Positions 891 to 10,322 of a stretch of 10,322 bases of DNA are shown piece after piece; position 1 is the stretch's first letter; each line of letters opens with the position of its first letter. The position numbers were made by a program, and so were the translations under genes. The notes beneath the pieces were generated by a model. It was not told where the DNA came from and did not search any database. It saw only the letters and a list, made by a program, of their open reading frames with translations. Origin of the DNA: an uncultured Thermococci archaeon (lineage in GTDB: Archaea; Methanobacteriota_B; Thermococci; Thermococcales; Thermococcaceae); NCBI GenBank assembly GCA_964487115.1, contig CAZAPD010000127.1, positions 1 to 10,322 of the forward strand. The letters run 5' to 3'.

Positions 891-948
891 TGCGATGATG
901 AGTGATGGGCGAACCGATCGATGAGGATGGAAAGGTGATCTCTGAGCA
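891..948 (+). ncRNA. Box C/D 2'-O-methylation guide sRNA (sRNA A)
   Basis: Box C ATGATGA 895-901; guide GTGATGGGCGAA 902-913; D' CCGA 914-917; C' ATGAGGA 921-927; guide TGGAAAGGTGATCT 928-941; box D CTGA 942-945; terminal stem TGC/GCA. The D' guide is complementary (one G:U) to archaeal 23S UUCGCCCAUUA, and the D guide to GAUCACCU at the 16S 3' end. Confidence 0.9.
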
Positions 949-950
949 TA

Positions 951-960
951 TCTTTTTAAG
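951..960 (+). promoter_or_regulatory. T-tract after sRNA A overlapping a TATA-like box for sRNA B
   Basis: TCTTTTTAAG: the T5 run lies right after sRNA A, and TTTAAG (955-960) lies about 21-26 nt upstream of the sRNA B start at 981. Confidence 0.5.
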
Positions 961-980: not shown

Positions 981-1090
981 GGGATGATGATTTCAGCCTT
1001 GCCTGAGGCCCGTAAGATACTGATGAACTGGGGTTAGAACATACGTTACACAGTATCCAGGGCCAGTGATGATGGAGTGACGGTCTGACC
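981..1090 (+). ncRNA. Box C/D guide sRNA with a long structured insert between D' and C' (sRNA B)
   Basis: Box C ATGATGA 984-990; guide TTTCAGCCTTGC 991-1002 (12/12 complement of 16S GCAAGGCUGAAA); D' CTGA 1003-1006; hairpin insert 1007-1064; C' GTGATGA 1066-1072; guide TGGAGTGACGGT 1073-1084 (complement of 16S CCGUCACUCCA); box D CTGA 1085-1088; GG/CC closing pairs. Confidence 0.88.
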
Positions 1091-1194: not shown

Positions 1195-2055
1195 ATGGAG
1201 GAGAGATTAAAACCGATATGGCTCAGCATCTTTGGAAATATGGTCCTCTCAGTTTTCAAGCTGGTGATAGGTTTTCTCTACTCCAGCATAGCCCTGATCT
1301 CCGATGGTATTCATTCCCTCTCCGATGTTATCACGAGCATCATAGGTTATTTTGGGATAATGATTTCCTCAAAGCCCCCGGACAAGAGTCATCCCTTTGG
1401 TCATTCCCGTTTTGAGCCTCTTGTGGCGTTGTTGATAGGTGAGGCCCTCCTTGTAGTTGCATATGAAATTGGGAGGGATGCCGTTTTTAGAATATTGCAT
1501 GGAAAGAGTGTGGAGGTTAATTCTCTGATGTTAGTCATCACAATTGTTTCAATTCTGTCCAAAGAAGCAATGGCAAGATATTCAATTCATATCGGCAGAA
1601 AGCTCAGGAGCCAGATTCTCATAGCAGATGCATACCATCACAGAAGCGATGCACTCAGCAGTGTTGCTGTCCTATTTGGGCTTGGAACTCAGAAGCTTGG
1701 CTTTGAGTATGGGGATGCGTTGGCGGGGCTTATTGTTGCAATTTTCCTTGTTAAAGTGGCTTTTAATGTAATTATGGAGAATCTGGGCTACCTAACGGGG
1801 CAGGCACCTCCTTTTGAGCTATGTGAGGATATAAAGAAAATAGCATTGGAGGTATCCGGTGTTCTCGGTGTTCATGACCTCCGTGCTCATTATGTTGGAA
1901 GCAGGCTTCATGTGGAACTTCATATCGAAGTTTCAGCGGAACTCACGCTGAAGGAAGCTCATGACATAAGCGAAGAAGTCAAGAGAAGGATAGAGCAGCT
2001 TGAGGATGTTGATACAGCATTTGTTCATGTTGATATTCAGGGAATAACAAAGTAG
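1195..2055 (+). CDS. Cation diffusion facilitator (FieF/YiiP-like divalent metal efflux transporter)
   Basis: CDF signature 'SIALISDGIHSLSD', 'KPPDKSHPFGHSRFE', TM5 'DAYHHRSD', and a C-terminal dimerisation domain 'VHDLRAH..HVELHIEV...EAHDI...VHVD'. SD-like GTGGTG upstream. Confidence 0.95.
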   Translation: MEERLKPIWLSIFGNMVLSVFKLVIGFLYSSIALISDGIHSLSDVITSIIGYFGIMISSKPPDKSHPFGHSRFEPLVALLIGEALLVVAYEIGRDAVFRILHGKSVEVNSLMLVITIVSILSKEAMARYSIHIGRKLRSQILIADAYHHRSDALSSVAVLFGLGTQKLGFEYGDALAGLIVAIFLVKVAFNVIMENLGYLTGQAPPFELCEDIKKIALEVSGVLGVHDLRAHYVGSRLHVELHIEVSAELTLKEAHDISEEVKRRIEQLEDVDTAFVHVDIQGITK

Positions 2056-2058
2056 CTT

Positions 2059-4347
2059 TCATACTGAGTAAACCCTGCCATTCAGATTTACTAAGAAGCT
2101 CTCCCTCACAGGTTCGATTATCACAAGCTTCCACGTAGTCAGGGTATCTATATTCACTATTATCCAATCTCCGCTTCTGATGTATTTTAGATAGGTTCTG
2201 CCCTCCTCAGGGGATATGGAGAAAATCTGCAGAATTCCATAATTCTCTGGGAGCTTCAGCTTGACTTCTATGTTTCTCTCCGGAACTGTCCAGTCATGAT
2301 TTTTGTTATAATGGTAGTTGTAATTAATCAAGCTTAAAATAAACTCATTGGTGTCAAATTTTTTGAGGGTATTTATCATTACGTTCTTTGAAGCATTTGT
2401 ATCAAGGAGCTTATCCATGTCCCAAGCGAAGCTTATCTTTCTTGCCATGTAACTGAATAGACTATTGTCAGGTTTTCTTTCTCCGAGAGAATCCCAATAT
2501 AACTCACCAGTTTTATTAACAATAATAACGTTTTTGCTGTTTAGAATTGTTGTTCTAATCGTGTTCTCCCTCCCATTATTCATGTCGTCATATAGAGCAA
2601 AATCTGCCGTGGTAATTAATCGCCCCTCAGTTTCTAAAAATTTCTCTATTGCATTTAGGTCGCGTGAAGAAATCCTGCTCAATCTTGGGGCTATCAGCAC
2701 CTTGTAATCCTTTAGTCTTTTGTAGGAATCTGTATTTAATATTCCATCCATCCCAAGTAGTAATACATCATAAGGAACATGCATCTCCTCCAAAGCTCTT
2801 GCCCAGCCACGGATCTCATCGTAGTAGTCATCACTACTGCGTATTCCAAAAGCCGGGAAATACTGCCATATTGCCGTTGGAAGAGAAACTAATAATGCCA
2901 CATTGGAATAAGGGCGCGTGTTTTCAAATAATTCCCGCATATTTGAGATGAAGCGATAGTATTCTGCTACTCCCTTTCTTTCATGTTTGCTGACCAATCT
3001 GTGAGGTGGCCACCCTTCATCAGGAGAACCTGTTCCAAAAGGTATTAGCATTATACAGCCGGGGTTACTGAATATCTCTGAGATTCTAAGCTTTATGAGA
3101 GTAGAAACGTCTGTGGGTGGAGTTTCTGGTGCAAAAGGATTTGCAAACCAGAGAGCCCACTCGCCAATCCAGACAGGTTTTGTAAAATTTGAAGAAGCCC
3201 TGGCGAGCTTGCATACCAGCCCGTTGGTTTGGTATGGAAACGGCCTGAGTTGGCTGTCTTCGACATAAACTACATCCATATAGGGCGTTAGAGTTATGTG
3301 GGGAATCCATGCGTAGAATTCGTTTGTTGTCAACAGAACTTTTCTATGGTTTGCTTCTGCATATTTCTTGGTCTCCACTGAAATGTTTTTAACAAGAGCT
3401 ATCGCAGACTGGTACCAGTATAACAATGCTTCCTTTAAAACGGGATCTGACAAAACTTCACTGTTGTTTTCAAATTCTATCCATTCAAACGGCCAGGATG
3501 TTAAAAATTTTTTTCTAAACGGAACACGAATTGAATAGTCTCCTTTTAGAGGATATTTGCTTTCTAAGTAGGTTTTCAAACAGAAATTATCCACATCTCT
3601 GATTCCCAGCTCTGAAAGCTGGCTTTTGGTGAATTTTGATTTTAGGTATTCTATAAACCCATGGCCTTCCCATGTATTCTTACAGCCCCAACCTCCGCCC
3701 CAGACAAATGTAAAAATAGCATCGGGACTGTCAAGGAATATTGCATCCGCTCCAGAGTTAATGGACTTCCTTATCCAATATAGAAGAAATTCCCTCCAGT
3801 ACGGATTTTGGGGCTGCATTATTCCGTAAAAATCCCTTCTCCCAAGCTCTTCTCCCAGAATCCTGATGGTGAGATAACCCGAGAAGGAGCGAGACAGCCC
3901 TACTGTGTAGGGATCTGAAGCTATGGTTCCGTTAGGATACCTCCATCGTTTGGAGTAGGGAAGTACATGCTGATAATAATATAAAAAGCCAATGTGAGAG
4001 GTGTAGGGCTCATCAACGGAATCCCCAACATGCCATCCCATGGCTGTTCCAACCGGAATGCCATATGCATGGGAAAGTGAAATAAGTGATTGCACATGTC
4101 TCCACTCTTCGGGATATTTCATCCATGGTCTGTAGTCTATCCATGCTTGAACTGTGTTATGAAGGAATTCAAGGTGATAATCGCTTTTTATTTCATTCAA
4201 CATATTCCCATAGAACTCAATTCTGAAGGCATCTCCAACAACAATCAGATCATTCCATTGAATTGCCGTTGATGTATTTGTCATTCCAATTAGCATAAAA
4301 ATCATGAAACATATTACTATTCTCTTAGTGCTTAGATTGACAAACAT
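2059..4347 (-). CDS. Large secreted hypothetical protein, putative glycoside hydrolase (TIM-barrel-like + beta-galactosidase-trimerisation/GATase-like + beta-sandwich)
   Basis: 762-aa ORF. ATG 4347 follows AAGGTG and is preferred over TTG 4365. Signal peptide 'KRIVICFMIFMLIGMTNTSTA'. 'NPYWREFLLYWIRKSINSGADAIFLD' is GH TIM-barrel-like. 'ARALEEMHVPYDVL...LKDYKVLIAP...IEKFLETEGRLI' resembles the GH42 trimerisation domain. The family is not assignable by eye. Confidence 0.6.
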   Translation of the reverse strand: MFVNLSTKRIVICFMIFMLIGMTNTSTAIQWNDLIVVGDAFRIEFYGNMLNEIKSDYHLEFLHNTVQAWIDYRPWMKYPEEWRHVQSLISLSHAYGIPVGTAMGWHVGDSVDEPYTSHIGFLYYYQHVLPYSKRWRYPNGTIASDPYTVGLSRSFSGYLTIRILGEELGRRDFYGIMQPQNPYWREFLLYWIRKSINSGADAIFLDSPDAIFTFVWGGGWGCKNTWEGHGFIEYLKSKFTKSQLSELGIRDVDNFCLKTYLESKYPLKGDYSIRVPFRKKFLTSWPFEWIEFENNSEVLSDPVLKEALLYWYQSAIALVKNISVETKKYAEANHRKVLLTTNEFYAWIPHITLTPYMDVVYVEDSQLRPFPYQTNGLVCKLARASSNFTKPVWIGEWALWFANPFAPETPPTDVSTLIKLRISEIFSNPGCIMLIPFGTGSPDEGWPPHRLVSKHERKGVAEYYRFISNMRELFENTRPYSNVALLVSLPTAIWQYFPAFGIRSSDDYYDEIRGWARALEEMHVPYDVLLLGMDGILNTDSYKRLKDYKVLIAPRLSRISSRDLNAIEKFLETEGRLITTADFALYDDMNNGRENTIRTTILNSKNVIIVNKTGELYWDSLGERKPDNSLFSYMARKISFAWDMDKLLDTNASKNVMINTLKKFDTNEFILSLINYNYHYNKNHDWTVPERNIEVKLKLPENYGILQIFSISPEEGRTYLKYIRSGDWIIVNIDTLTTWKLVIIEPVRESFLVNLNGRVYSV

Positions 4348-4379
4348 CCTAAGCACCTTTAACAATGTGGAATAGTGTG

Positions 4380-4394
4380 TATAAAACTTTTTTG
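4380..4394 (-). promoter_or_regulatory. BRE/TATA for the GH-like gene
   Basis: Minus strand reads CAAAAAAGTTTTATA about 33-47 nt upstream of ATG 4347. Confidence 0.55.
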
Positions 4395-4444
4395 TTTAAT
4401 TTCTTGTGATGTTTATGTTGGATCTCGTATGTGTAATTATGACT

Positions 4445-5590
4445 CTATAAAATCTCCCTTAGATCGCGCAAAAACTCCTCAAGATGTGCTTTCCTCACGT
4501 GAGGCATCATAACAATCCTTATATAACCCCTATGAGCGCTTATCCCCCAGCCTCTGTTTTTGAGCTCTTCCTCAACTCTCTCAAGCCCTTGAGTTCCAAA
4601 TGAGACTATATTGAGAACTGGCTCGCGAATCAGGTAAACCCCTGGCATTCTTTTAAGCTCATCTGCGAACCATCTGCTCAGCTCCATAGCTTCCTTCACG
4701 ATTTCCCTGTAGCCTTCAAACCCGAGATGTTTTATCATCCCCCATACAGCTAAAGCATTTGCTCCGGGTCTTGTGCCGGTTATGGTTGCCTGCCATACCT
4801 TTCCACCGGCGAGATAGGGCGCTGGAACACTTATAGCTTCTAAGAACATCTTCTTACGGAAGAGTATCCCTCCCGCTGGAATGGGTACCATGCCCATTTT
4901 GTGGGGATCTATGGTTACGCTCTGGACGCCTCTAAGTCTGAAGTCGAAATCCGGGAGTTCATAGCCAAGGGTCTTTGCAAAGGGTATTACAAATCCCCCG
5001 AAGGCCGCATCGACGTGAAGAGGAAGCCCGTAGTCCATGGCCAGATCGCTCAGGGCAGGTATATCATCGACGACTCCTAAACCTGTGGTTCCGGCTATGC
5101 CCACAATTCCAATTGTGTTGTCTGTTATCTTGGCTTCAACATCCTTAACATCCACGGAATAATCCTCCTTCAACTCAGCCCAGACAAGTTTAACCTTAAG
5201 CATCTCGCTGGCCTTCAGGAAAGAGAAATGGGCACTTTCTGGTAAAATAAGTTCTGGATTCTCAACGTCTGCAATATTCCGGAAGGCTCTAACGGCTAAG
5301 ATGTTTGCTTCCGTTCCACCTGAAACTATATTGCCGTGAGCTCTTTTCAGATGGAGAAGAGAGCCAAGCATCTGAATCACTTCACGTTCTATCTCCCGGC
5401 TTCCGAGATGAAGTCCCGGATCGCCGAGATTTCTGTCAATATATCCTGCGACTATTTTTCTAGCGAAGGGATGGGGATAGGTACACATTGAGCCGAGAAT
5501 TTTTCCAGAATCGAAAGTTAAATCTCTCTGAGTCTTTCTTTCCAGCTCTGCCAGAACTTCATTCTCATCTAAGCCTTTCTCTGGGAACAT
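4445..5590 (-). CDS. mfnA: PLP-dependent group II decarboxylase, MfnA family (L-aspartate/tyrosine decarboxylase; the beta-alanine source for CoA in Thermococcales)
   Basis: 'ILGSMCT', 'NLGDPGL', 'SGGTEAN', 'AHFSF', 'LHVDAAFGG', PLP-lysine motif 'DPHKMG' and 'GTRPG'. SD AGGTGA before the ATG. Confidence 0.95.
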   Translation of the reverse strand: MFPEKGLDENEVLAELERKTQRDLTFDSGKILGSMCTYPHPFARKIVAGYIDRNLGDPGLHLGSREIEREVIQMLGSLLHLKRAHGNIVSGGTEANILAVRAFRNIADVENPELILPESAHFSFLKASEMLKVKLVWAELKEDYSVDVKDVEAKITDNTIGIVGIAGTTGLGVVDDIPALSDLAMDYGLPLHVDAAFGGFVIPFAKTLGYELPDFDFRLRGVQSVTIDPHKMGMVPIPAGGILFRKKMFLEAISVPAPYLAGGKVWQATITGTRPGANALAVWGMIKHLGFEGYREIVKEAMELSRWFADELKRMPGVYLIREPVLNIVSFGTQGLERVEEELKNRGWGISAHRGYIRIVMMPHVRKAHLEEFLRDLREIL

Positions 5591-5627
5591 TTTCTCACCT
5601 GCTTGTTTAAGCTTTCAGCTTTTCAAT

Positions 5628-6809
5628 TTAAGCTTTGCCTTTTATTCTCTTGAGATAGCTCTTGAAGAAGAAGGGAGTTGTTAATGCTGTCATCATCGAG
5701 ACGGTTACAACACCTGCAAAGAGCACCTGATTTATTATGCCCGTATCGAGACCAAATTTAAGAATTGCCAGCTCAAGACTCCCCCTTCCGCCCATTCCGA
5801 TACCTATGAGCAGGGAATCCTTCCACTCAAGTCCGAACATTTTGCTCCCGAGAGAACATCCTATCAGCTTTCCCATCACCGCAGCCATGTAAAGGATGAC
5901 TATTAGGGCGAGGTTTATTTCGTTGACTTGTGGATTAAACATCAAGCCCACATAGACAAAGAAGAGGGGGATGAAGAACTCTGTAAGAACCACCTGCAGA
6001 TTCTCTATAAGTTCGTTCAACTTTATGCGACTTATTATCATGGGATCCCGCCTTTCTTTCAGTCTGCTGATTGTGAGTCCAGCCAGATATGCTCCGATGA
6101 TATAATGCAGACCAACGGTTTCTGCAAGCAGTGCCAGTGAAAAAGTTAGAATCAGCGTGAATGTAAAGAACACATTCAGGTTTTTGATTATATAGTTGAA
6201 GCTTTTGGCACGTTTGAAGACAAATTCGGAGAGCAGGAGAGTACCGGCTATGAACAGGGCAATTTTAATAGTGAGCAGGATCAGGGGGTATGTGCTGAAT
6301 TCTCCCCTGGCTAAAGCAGTGATTATACCGATAAGATAAACTGCTATGATGTCATCGACGAAAGCCGCACCCATCAGGATTGAGGATACTTCCCTTCTGA
6401 CCCGCTCCTTAACGAGAATTCCGCTCGTTACCTCTATAGCTGTGTTTCCGAGGGTTATACCAACAAATACTGCAGCGGCCAAGCCTTCTCCGAAGACTAT
6501 AACCGTGGTAAAACCGAGGATAAATGAAAAAGCAACTCCCATCGCTGCAACGACAATTGATCTCTTTGTATTCTGAGCTATTGCAGAGAAGTTGCTTGTT
6601 AGACCCATGTAAAGCATCATCATGAGGAGTCCAAACTCGGATAAAACCTTAAGCTCTCCCATCGGTTGGACGACTCCAAGAATGAAAGGTCCGAGAATGA
6701 TCCCTGTTAAAACATGGGCTATTATAGGGGGAATACTCACCCGCTCAAAAAGCCACTCTAAGCTCTTTGCAACCACCAGAAGAATGGCCAGAGCAAAGAG
6801 ATAATTCAC
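5628..6809 (-). CDS. Cation:proton antiporter (CPA2, NapA/KefB-like)
   Basis: About 12-13 hydrophobic segments with 'GIILGP', 'AAFVDD', 'GAYLAG', 'FFIPLFF..VG' and 'GMGGRG'. GTG at 6809 follows GGAGGGGG and is preferred over TTG 6830. Confidence 0.92.
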   Translation of the reverse strand: MNYLFALAILLVVAKSLEWLFERVSIPPIIAHVLTGIILGPFILGVVQPMGELKVLSEFGLLMMMLYMGLTSNFSAIAQNTKRSIVVAAMGVAFSFILGFTTVIVFGEGLAAAVFVGITLGNTAIEVTSGILVKERVRREVSSILMGAAFVDDIIAVYLIGIITALARGEFSTYPLILLTIKIALFIAGTLLLSEFVFKRAKSFNYIIKNLNVFFTFTLILTFSLALLAETVGLHYIIGAYLAGLTISRLKERRDPMIISRIKLNELIENLQVVLTEFFIPLFFVYVGLMFNPQVNEINLALIVILYMAAVMGKLIGCSLGSKMFGLEWKDSLLIGIGMGGRGSLELAILKFGLDTGIINQVLFAGVVTVSMMTALTTPFFFKSYLKRIKGKA

Positions 6810-8593: not shown

Positions 8594-10322
8594 TCATTTA
8601 ATTACCACCTTAACGAAGTTGCTGAGCGTATCGCTGTCTTTCCATTCATCGGTGCTGTCATGGACTGCTTTGTCATCTGGGATTGTTACAACGGCTGATG
8701 TCCTGTCTCCTCCAGCTATCCATGCTATAACCTTCACTTCTTTGGGCTTTCCTCCAATGGCCTTCCATGGTATCCTGAGTTCTACCGTTTGCAAACCTGA
8801 AGTTCCTCCAAAGTACGCTACCTTAAAGCCTTTAAACTGTTTGTTCCAGTCGTATGTCCATTTTCCATCCTCGTATTTGACCAGTTGCATTCCTGTGTCC
8901 TTGCCGAAGTTGTACTCAAGCCTCTTTGTTCCGCTGTTCCACCAGCCGTAGATTTCGTAGTCTACGCCTTCTGTGAAGCTTATCAGCTTGCCCCATGCAT
9001 CTCTATCTCCTGTGTATCCTCCTTTCTTTACATCCAGCCCGATTCCATAGCTTAAGTCCCAGTTCTTGCTGTTGTTTGCCTCAAGGGCGATATAGAGGTA
9101 ATTGTTGTCATAGTCCACTCCAAGCGTGACGAGATTGGCACCGGCATAATTTGAGTTCTTTTCCCTGATTACGACTTTGGCATTCTGCCAGTCAGCTAAG
9201 GCACCATCAATTGCGAGCTTCTTTGGAACTTCACTTCCGGTCCCCTTCAGCGTTGCATAGGTTGTTATCCAGTCTAAGTCGTTCCATTCATTTGCTTGGT
9301 CGTTTATGATCTTGTCATAGGGCAGGCAATCGACTGCTGAGGTTCCTGTATCTGCCCCTGTAACAAATGCACTCACCTTTGCATTATCTGGATCTGGGAT
9401 GAGAGAGCGCGGAATCTGGAATATGAGCCTCTTTATTCCGCTGGAGCCTTTTGTATACGAAATTCTAATTCCGACCTCGTCGGGTTTGTTGTACTTCCAT
9501 TCTCCAGACTTCCATTTGGCAAAGCTCATGGCATCAATGCTGTTATCCTCCGAGCTCCAATAGACATAGATTTCGTAATCAGGTTTAAAAGAGAACCAGA
9601 TGTTCCTTCTCCAAGCATCAGATGTTCCATTGTAGCCTCCATCCTTTGCATCGATGGCGATTCCATAGGCGACATCCCAGTTTTCGGTGTTACCTGTATC
9701 AACAACTACATAGTAGTATTTATCATCAGAGCCGAGGTATAGAGCTGTGAGATTTGCACCCTCTTTTCCATGTTGCATGTCTTCCGCAACCTTGGTGACC
9801 CTGCTCATGACGCCCTCAGATTCAAGCTTTTTGATGAGGTTGGTTATCTTGGTCTGGATGCCCTTTATCCGGTAGTATGCTGAAGCCACGATGAAGGCCC
9901 CCCTTGGAGATGGATTACTTCCCTGTAGGAGAGTGAATCCCTTTTTGAACAGTCTATGGTTCTCTGCAAGCTTCTTCTCAAGGGTCTTGATTTTGGCTAA
10001 TGATTCATTGGTGAGTGCTATCTCCTTTGCTTTCTCAAGTGCTTTTACACTCCATTCATATCTCTTCACGTATAAGTTAGGCCAGATATACATTCCAGCA
10101 GTCATCAAGTTCTGTCTTCTTATCTCAATTTCTCCGACATAGAGCTTGTAGGAAGAGGTTATGTTTTTCCCTTCGTACTCCACTACGGCTTTTAGATAGT
10201 GAGTCCCGGTTTTCTGTTCATTATACTCGTAAATGTAGTTCAGATTTATTTTGCCTTTAGCTGGGACACTAACAGTCCAGTTTTTAATTTTTACATCGTT
10301 ATCGTAAAGTGTTACATTGACG
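8594..10322 (-). CDS. 3' part of a large extracellular protein: CARDB-like Ig domain, helical bundle, two tandem DOMON/CBM9-like domains
   Basis: The frame stays open from 10183 to the window edge (VNVTLYDNDVKIKNWTVSVPAKGKINLNYIYEYNEQKTGTHYLKAVVEY, CARDB-like), so the true start is outside the window. 'IDGALADW', 'DNNYLYIA' and 'VELRIPWKAIG' are DOMON/CBM9-like hallmarks. Confidence 0.8.
   Translation of the reverse strand, partial: VNVTLYDNDVKIKNWTVSVPAKGKINLNYIYEYNEQKTGTHYLKAVVEYEGKNITSSYKLYVGEIEIRRQNLMTAGMYIWPNLYVKRYEWSVKALEKAKEIALTNESLAKIKTLEKKLAENHRLFKKGFTLLQGSNPSPRGAFIVASAYYRIKGIQTKITNLIKKLESEGVMSRVTKVAEDMQHGKEGANLTALYLGSDDKYYYVVVDTGNTENWDVAYGIAIDAKDGGYNGTSDAWRRNIWFSFKPDYEIYVYWSSEDNSIDAMSFAKWKSGEWKYNKPDEVGIRISYTKGSSGIKRLIFQIPRSLIPDPDNAKVSAFVTGADTGTSAVDCLPYDKIINDQANEWNDLDWITTYATLKGTGSEVPKKLAIDGALADWQNAKVVIREKNSNYAGANLVTLGVDYDNNYLYIALEANNSKNWDLSYGIGLDVKKGGYTGDRDAWGKLISFTEGVDYEIYGWWNSGTKRLEYNFGKDTGMQLVKYEDGKWTYDWNKQFKGFKVAYFGGTSGLQTVELRIPWKAIGGKPKEVKVIAWIAGGDRTSAVVTIPDDKAVHDSTDEWKDSDTLSNFVKVVIK
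8597..9802 (-). repeat. Protein-level tandem duplication of a ~190-205 aa domain (about 9802-9248 and 9220-8597)
   Basis: Aligned motifs: GANLTALY/GANLVTLG, NWDVAYGIAIDAKDGGY/NWDLSYGIGLDVKKGGY, DAWRR/DAWGK, DYEIY/DYEIY, TSAVDCLP/TSAVVTIP, EWNDLD/EWKDSD. Confidence 0.85.

Follow-up and report, generated by a model that had tools for sequence, protein, structure and literature searches.

The segment 981-1090 of the DNA analysed here is, judged by its guides and synteny, a box C/D guide RNA orthologous to the catalogued sR60, and its D'-C' loop very probably carries a decayed mini-element of the IS6 family (ISPfu1-like). With moderate confidence we favour the reading that this sR60, with the decayed insert in its loop, is still functional as an RNA of ~110 nt via a kink-turn (K-turn). 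The window, i.e. the whole stretch of 10,322 nt, is contig C127 of a 2.06-Mb, 96%-complete metagenome-assembled genome (G000).

Identity of the guide RNA

A preliminary description made from the letters of the window had recognised four near-perfect boxes and two 12-nt guides. Boxes C, D', C', and D are present in the proper order, all four are perfect consensus, and both guides find complements in the 16S rRNA of the same genome (Table 1). Based on the N+5 rule for choosing the methylated base (PMC6009581), the D' guide would target G849 and the D guide U1355 (own 16S numbering). The single mismatch of the D guide to the 16S is the base adjoining box D, and the N+5 base is paired in both guides. 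We take G849 and U1355 to be the equivalents of E. coli G902 and U1406, respectively.

Table 1. Coordinates of the sR60 region and of the elements recognised in its loop (window numbering)
Feature	Position	Strand	Remarks
Neighbouring C/D guide RNA sR1 (RF01152)	891..947	+	Rfam 55.3 bits, cut-off 45; 3-nt loop
TATA-like element	953..960	+	~20-25 nt upstream of sR60 5' end
sR60 orthologue (RF01309)	981..1090	+	110 nt including the insertion; two half-matches to RF01309
Terminal GG/CC stem of sR60	981-982/1089-1090	+	GGG..CC ends in 29/29 relatives' loci
Box C, ATGATGA	984..990	+	Perfect consensus; same in 29/29 relatives' loci
D' guide, 12 nt	991..1002	+	12/12 complement in own 16S
Box D', CTGA	1003..1006	+	Perfect consensus
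D'-C' spacer, 59 nt	1007..1065	+	
5' strand of new 5-bp GC stem	1007..1011	+	From folding; directly after D'; C-stem of predicted C'/D' K-turn
Left copy of 8-bp duplication	1008..1015	+	Abuts left tip; old C' start GTGA now GTAA
Decayed IS6/ISPfu1-like mini-element (probable), 42 nt	1016..1057	.	Tips equal the terminal inverted repeats of Thermococcales IS6 over their outer 7 bp
Left inverted-repeat remnant	1016..1032	+	5 nt of inner repeat deleted; 17/17 to C55:22094 across one 5-nt gap
Right inverted-repeat remnant	1050..1057	-	Outer 8 bp intact, inner part decayed
Four extra nt, right tip to right duplication copy	1058..1061	+	Give two of the five stem pairs
3' strand of 5-bp GC stem	1060..1064	+	From folding
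Right copy of 8-bp duplication	1062..1069	+	Restores first 4 nt of box C'
3-nt bulge of predicted K-turn	1065..1067	+	Before GA of C'; register = terminal C/D K-turn (983-985)
Box C', GTGATGA	1066..1072	+	Perfect consensus
D guide, 12 nt	1073..1084	+	11/12 complement in own 16S
Box D, CTGA	1085..1088	+	Perfect consensus

Upstream lies sR1, the neighbouring RNA for which a 3-nt spacer had been described correctly, and relatives in the genus keep this sR1-sR60 tandem. The two Rfam families also fit the earlier placement of the DNA in Thermococcales. The two genes are adjacent in most relatives and ~750-850 nt apart in G001, G033, G014, G005, G034, and on contig C51 of G016. The TATA-like element is presumably the sR60 promoter; a TTTTAA core was found at the same place upstream of sR60 in 5/5 relatives listed. 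The tandem is flanked by genes for a camelysin/Peptidase_M73-like secreted protein (184-795) and a cation-efflux (CDF) transporter (1195-2055). Two large secreted-looking proteins of 768 and 529 aa are encoded further on (2059-4365 and 8594-10183, both on the minus strand); their ORFs had no blastn counterpart in the compared stretches of G016 and G022, except that 1238-5650 aligns with G016. An antisense ORF of 68 aa (886-1092) is taken as incidental.

Each half of sR60 was searched in 99 genomes of the order, and both halves were found in 93, all Thermococcaceae. At the 94 sR60 loci the D'-C' spacer is 3 nt (64 loci) or 5 nt (29 loci), and 59 nt at the window only. The site is empty in 92/92 other genomes holding both halves, i.e. 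orthologues lacking the insert, the search for which had been proposed as a check, exist in 92 of the 93. The RNA is therefore an old one that was already known, and the insert is confined to a single lineage. Of the two lengths given previously, 59 nt for the spacer holds, and 58 nt for the insert is off by one; the net insertion relative to the closest relatives is 54 nt. Outside the loop, the window sR60 equals that of the relative G016 (a genome 85% complete with 4% contamination) except at the variable first guide base. The gene is single-copy in the window's assembly; G016 has two copies (C51 and C226), which may reflect contamination. A lone match of the 5' half in G114 lacks box context and is regarded as chance. 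A JGI scan for other long sR60 (40-70-nt gap) gave 1 match, L031, which is identical to the window at the same coordinates and therefore not independent.

It had been predicted that an insert of this length would make standard C/D searches miss the RNA, and at the gathering score an Rfam scan of the whole window indeed returned sR1 only. With a relaxed threshold, the halves of sR60 matched RF01309 at 31.1 and 20.1 bits (cut-off 50); the uninserted copy of G016 scores 60.6 bits. The window copy misses the RF01309 score because of the insertion, and it is therefore filed as an sR60 variant. As to whether it has already been catalogued, the RNA family has, as sR60, but a catalogued long form was not found. 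This exposes a blind spot: a universally kept guide is lost from Rfam annotation after such an insertion.

Origin of the insert

Transposases of PF13610 were detected in 17/99 genomes. No IS6 transposase ORF was found in the window's assembly, which is 96% complete and of a kind in which repeats often go unassembled. An unbiased inverted-repeat search at 30 IS6-transposase loci recovered 20 elements of ~770-780 bp whose repeats begin with GATACTG or its first-base variant, and an exact 8-bp duplication was present in 10/21 extracted elements. These agree with the ISFinder figures for ISPfu1 and ISPfu2, namely lengths of 781 and 782 bp, repeats of 15/16 bp starting with GA, and an 8-bp duplication (PMC6807381 Table 5).

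The positions 1016-1022 and 1051-1057 are exact IS6 tips in inverted orientation. In a reversed-pattern control, inverted 7-mer pairs 12-42 nt apart occurred 13 times in the 99 genomes, about 1 per 14 Mb. The real search at the same distance gave 17, made up of the insert of the window, 13 others, and three mini-elements whose repeats are complete or almost so. None of 1500 random genomic 42-mers scored as well as the insert against IS ends. The interior of the insert contributes weakly: when it was shuffled and the tips were left in place, 150/1500 scored as high. Against the IS ends of other genomes the left arm ranks 25 and the right arm 163 of 294 7-mer occurrences, so that the inner part of the right arm is indistinguishable from chance. 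The full 16-bp IS6 repeat is absent from the insert, and the outer 7/8 bp are exact at both ends.

A degenerate direct repeat, probably the target duplication, borders the element. Its two copies are 6/8 identical and the right copy is offset by 4 nt. Each duplication 9-mer matches the ancestral 9-mer of loop plus C' at 7/9 positions, and of the 9 positions left unexplained by a non-duplicating insertion, 6 match the ancestral 9-mer (p about 0.01). Two substitutions separate the copies: by one, the leftover half-C' has lost its G, and by the other, the bulge has gained a purine as its first base.

The family has left other traces. In the window's own genome, remnants were observed at C109:21156-21237 (an 82-nt mini-element), at C100:47408-47781 (374 nt), as a cluster of ends at C55:19358-24000, and at C51:9988. 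The left arm of the insert (1016-1032) equals an IS end of this genome, at C55:22094, in 17/17 positions across a 5-nt gap. Five genomes contain mini-elements (47-95 bp) whose 16-bp repeats are complete, and 12/28 of those examined have an exact 8-bp duplication. G016 holds 28 pattern matches, IS6-type elements of 47-87 bp with full 16-bp repeats, in many cases an exact 8-bp duplication, and variable modular interiors (e.g., L218-L226, L228, L233-L242); a few more (56-95 bp) occur in G063, G096, G105, and G000. This burst of 47-87-bp elements in G016 may merit a separate study. Rfam scans of 20 mini-element loci found nearby tRNAs only; none of these loci was a further case of a known guide carrying an insertion. 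At 3/20 scanned loci, all in G016 (L226, L233, L236), a tRNA gene lies within ~140 nt of the mini-element.

Based on these comparisons, the following history is proposed. An IS6-family (ISPfu1-like) element, either of full length or already a tiny MITE, would have entered the D'-C' loop of sR60 and duplicated 8 bp made up of the loop plus the 5' half of C'. The duplication spans the loop and the start of C', so that an intact C' would have been left 3' of the element. The element would then have decayed to a hairpin of 42 nt, with the inner repeats lost and the duplication mutated; this order of events is our reconstruction, and the element is probably now immobile. A small mobile element tolerated in the loop was among the possibilities raised in the preliminary description, and it can now be given a name as an IS6/ISPfu1-like remnant.

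Folding, function, and alternative readings

Both stems described for the spacer, 1007-1011/1060-1064 and 1016-1022/1051-1057, are present in the minimum free energy (MFE) structure. With the spacer folded alone, their pair probabilities fall from 0.98-1.0 at 37°C to 0.68-0.96 at 80°C. In a protein-free state the inner stem is of marginal stability close to the growth temperature (0.23-0.35 at 90°C), and the AU-rich apical part of the hairpin is unfolded at 80°C. The spacer alone is more stable than its dinucleotide shuffles (z -3.1, 7/2000), a comparison in which the region was picked post hoc. When the left outer arm is left off, the remaining 54 nt fold no better than dinucleotide shuffles (816/2000), and the whole 126-nt region is unremarkable relative to shuffles (z -1.0). 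The usual C'/D' kink-loop (K-loop) is predicted to be replaced here by a K-turn. Where a short C'/D' K-loop in an RNA of about 50 nt is expected, the window sR60 has a 59-nt spacer; the short K-loop is a typical and not a strict feature, and loops of 19-21 nt exist elsewhere.

In Thermococcaceae, sR60 would act as a dual guide for two ribose methylations of 16S rRNA. The window copy is most likely transcribed as one ~110-nt molecule from its own promoter. The GC stem would join D' and C' as a K-turn, L7Ae, Nop5, and fibrillarin could assemble at both ends, and G849 and U1355 would be methylated while the hairpin projects as a passenger. Boxes and guides have not changed beyond the variation of the family, and the insert has taken several substitutions and indels. 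Boxes and guides have thus stayed intact while the insert decayed, and there is no second sR60; hence the ~110-nt RNA probably works, and a single molecule that still guides both methylations is the likely product. Neither target is among the three ribose methylations in the cryo-EM tables for the P. abyssi 30S subunit (PMC7005279 Tables 2-3). The published methylation status of both targets was not found in the available text of PMC7005279 and PMC7758197 or in 12/15 supplementary files of PMC4247193.

The most serious alternative, which we nevertheless consider unlikely, is that the IS6 insertion crippled the RNA. The locus would then be a young pseudogene, a guide with one working half, or the source of hairpin-cleaved halves that function poorly or serve as a two-piece guide. 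The evidence for selection comes from only two informative substitutions and 46 sites under constraint; of the 58 sites, 12 lie outside the boxes, and the two changes that separate the duplication copies are both found there (p about 0.04). The apical AU-rich part, unfolded at 80°C, would be exposed to nucleases. [quoted passage not shown] However, boxes, both guides, the terminal stem, and the TATA-like element are intact despite the substitutions and indels of the insert, the new stem lies in the exact K-turn register, and sR60 is kept in 93/99 genomes with no backup copy here.

Selection may even have remodelled the transposon remnant into a structural part of the guide RNA, a suggestion that we make only tentatively and regard as rather doubtful. 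On this suggestion the repeats would have been trimmed in register, the decoy half-C' destroyed, and 4 nt added to give five GC pairs, although each of these steps is offered with the same reserve. It is likewise conceivable, if doubtful, that the product is a natural C/D RNA whose two ends both form K-turns and which acts as a monomeric sRNP in the cell. If so, it would be a natural test of the mono- vs. di-sRNP question, and would reveal a route by which tiny IS6 MITEs can lengthen compact archaeal guides toward the long-loop form.

Less probable still is a non-transposon source of the insert, either local (a template switch or hairpin duplication) or by selection for an additional domain (e.g., a third guide, rRNA-binding enhancer, H/ACA hairpin, or ribozyme). 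Local duplication of the palindromic GGCC would also yield the outer stem, the interior of the insert matches the IS ends of other genomes weakly, and the 21-nt hairpin loop of Thermococcus sR39 variants exists without IS tips. Against this, exact inverted IS6 tips are rare by chance and here coincide with the boundary of the duplication. Similarity searches gave no source. The check for further copies of the insert, which had been suggested, came back empty: blastn found none in the own genome, where the longest shared word is 13 nt and no 20-mer lies within 3 mismatches, and no homologue exists in 98 other genomes of the order. A plasmid and phage search gave noise only (E 5-6), viral scans gave 4 and 106 matches that were unrelated among the matches listed, and a GTDB-wide hairpin pattern gave 25 matches, none of which matches the insert sequence. 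The IS origin escaped these similarity searches owing to the deletions that break up the repeats. In a genome-wide count of 25-mers of the own genome, two types of CRISPR-like repeat were observed, in 24 and about 11 copies, together with a tRNA-3'-end-like sequence in five identical copies and a ~60-nt GC-rich repeat in four.

The earlier idea of an extra functional domain fares no better. The best complement of the insert to 16S is 9 bp (10/60 shuffles are as good), and its complements of 7 bp to the 23S of the relative G010 (the 23S is missing from the window's assembly) and of 7 bp to tRNAs also do not rise above shuffles. Pairing of the insert near either target site is no better than in shuffles. 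The insert does contain CTGATGA, a motif that resembles the C box and the hammerhead core. No D box follows this motif within 9-14 nt, as a third guide would have. The fold has no pseudouridylation pocket, apical K-turn or K-loop, or ACA tail, and Rfam reports no H/ACA match. The hammerhead consensus comprises a core of CUGANGA and GAAA with three stems; GAAA is absent from the insert, the CTG is paired in a stem, and Rfam returned no ribozyme match.

The intron-like element of the preliminary description, which would be cut out by the tRNA splicing endonuclease to give a normal sR60 of ~56 nt, is very improbable. C/D RNAs are known to circularise in archaea (PMC7994747), and one contig of run X1 skips exactly 54 nt. 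That contig (depth 4.65), however, differs at 15 further letters in 120 and stems from a different organism's DNA. A 3-nt bulge/4-bp helix/3-nt bulge is missing from the ends of the insert: the junction is a 4x2 internal loop with a 5-bp helix, and the sole strict bulge-helix-bulge in 981-1090 pairs 1034-1037 with box D.

An assembly artefact is scarcely credible: the window comes from one metagenome-assembled genome, and two matching contigs may share its sample, but these two, the JGI contig L031 and a single 10,322-nt Logan contig (depth 49.5), were separately assembled and are identical letter for letter, the insert has no second genomic copy to mis-join, and a decayed IS with a mutated duplication is unlike a product of mis-assembly. 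In DNA run X2, from another study, a contig equals 823-1014 without difference, including two letters of the inserted allele; it ends 3 nt into the insert and is too short to count.

Comparison with known RNAs and elements

A scan of the own genome for C/D RNAs with long spacers gave 56 raw matches. With the read-through of the sR1-sR60 tandem set aside, only the window sR60 joins a long spacer to long guides that match 16S. Order-wide patterns with spacers of 15-76 nt recovered mostly tandem sRNA pairs, along with the 21-nt loop of sR39 and a three-guide RNA bearing a hairpin of 18 nt; 60 of these loci were classified by script and the others by eye from their first 80 nt. Three box-plus-guide units in a row were observed in genus g1 (L276, L277, L284, L288, L292, L299, and other genomes of the genus), with an 18-nt GC hairpin between units two and three. 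This may be a three-guide sRNA; at the gathering score, Rfam reported no match for L276 and L292. Another apparent three-unit C/D arrangement is present in genus g14 (G113, G115, G116; e.g., G113:C1:1122983-1123063).

Natural D'-C' spacers of 19-21 nt, in excess of the usual 3-10 nt, have been described in haloarchaeal C/D guides (PMC2584109). Variants of sR39 in Thermococcus have a spacer of 21 nt that folds as a hairpin, as in the window, and in which no IS tips were seen. Both are about one third as long as the window spacer. The sR39 hairpin loop was located at L286:1497-1569 (G075) and G080:C20:73794-73860, where the sequences differ and the stem is kept; the sR39 orthologue of the window's genome (C66:15458) has a 3-nt loop. 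Known sR60 (RF01309, clan CL00132) shares with the window copy the boxes, both guides, the terminal stem, and the place beside sR1. Its spacer is 3-5 nt with a K-loop, whereas the window copy has 59 nt, a predicted K-turn, and a score under the Rfam cut-off.

In the literature covered, which was mainly open and at the level of abstracts, we met with no archaeal C/D RNA described as interrupted by an IS-derived insertion; supplementary sRNA lists may bear on this point. The available text of PMC4644070, PMC3849170, PMC2678158, and PMC7758197 and 12/15 supplementary files of PMC4247193 hold nothing on sR60. With ISPfu1/ISPfu2-like elements and their MITEs the insert has in common the outer 7-8 bp of the repeats, a probable 8-bp duplication, and the presence of the family in this genome and order. 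It differs from ISPfu1-like MITEs in its length of only 42 nt, the lost inner repeats, the degenerate duplication, the lack of a transposase, and its single copy; being single-copy, it is filed as a remnant and not as an active MITE. The MITE-like sRNA elements of Pyrobaculum calidifontis also combine a MITE and a C/D sRNA in one locus (PMC6009581). In that organism the inverted repeats lie to either side of an sRNA-like core, of which there are 15 copies, whereas in the window a MITE remnant lies inside an established single-copy guide.

The sR60 of the window is an accident of a single lineage in a known family, and its organism is known from metagenome data only. Its interest lies in a predicted natural conversion of a K-loop to a K-turn. 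Should the ~110-nt RNA be functional, an insertion of 54 nt from a mobile element would be tolerated in nature by the archaeal D'-C' loop, and a K-loop would not be required in vivo. This would bear on the question of whether archaeal C/D particles are monomers or dimers, for which evidence has so far come from artificial RNAs (PMC5062973, PMC6239191). It has been shown that a symmetric C/D RNA with a stem in place of the loop forms an active mono-RNP in vitro, for which a crystal structure is available (PMC6239191, PMC7994747). In such engineered RNAs (PMC5062973, PMC6239191, PMC7994747) the K-loop was swapped for a K-turn or second stem, as appears to have happened here; they are artificial, whereas the window sR60 is encoded in a genome.
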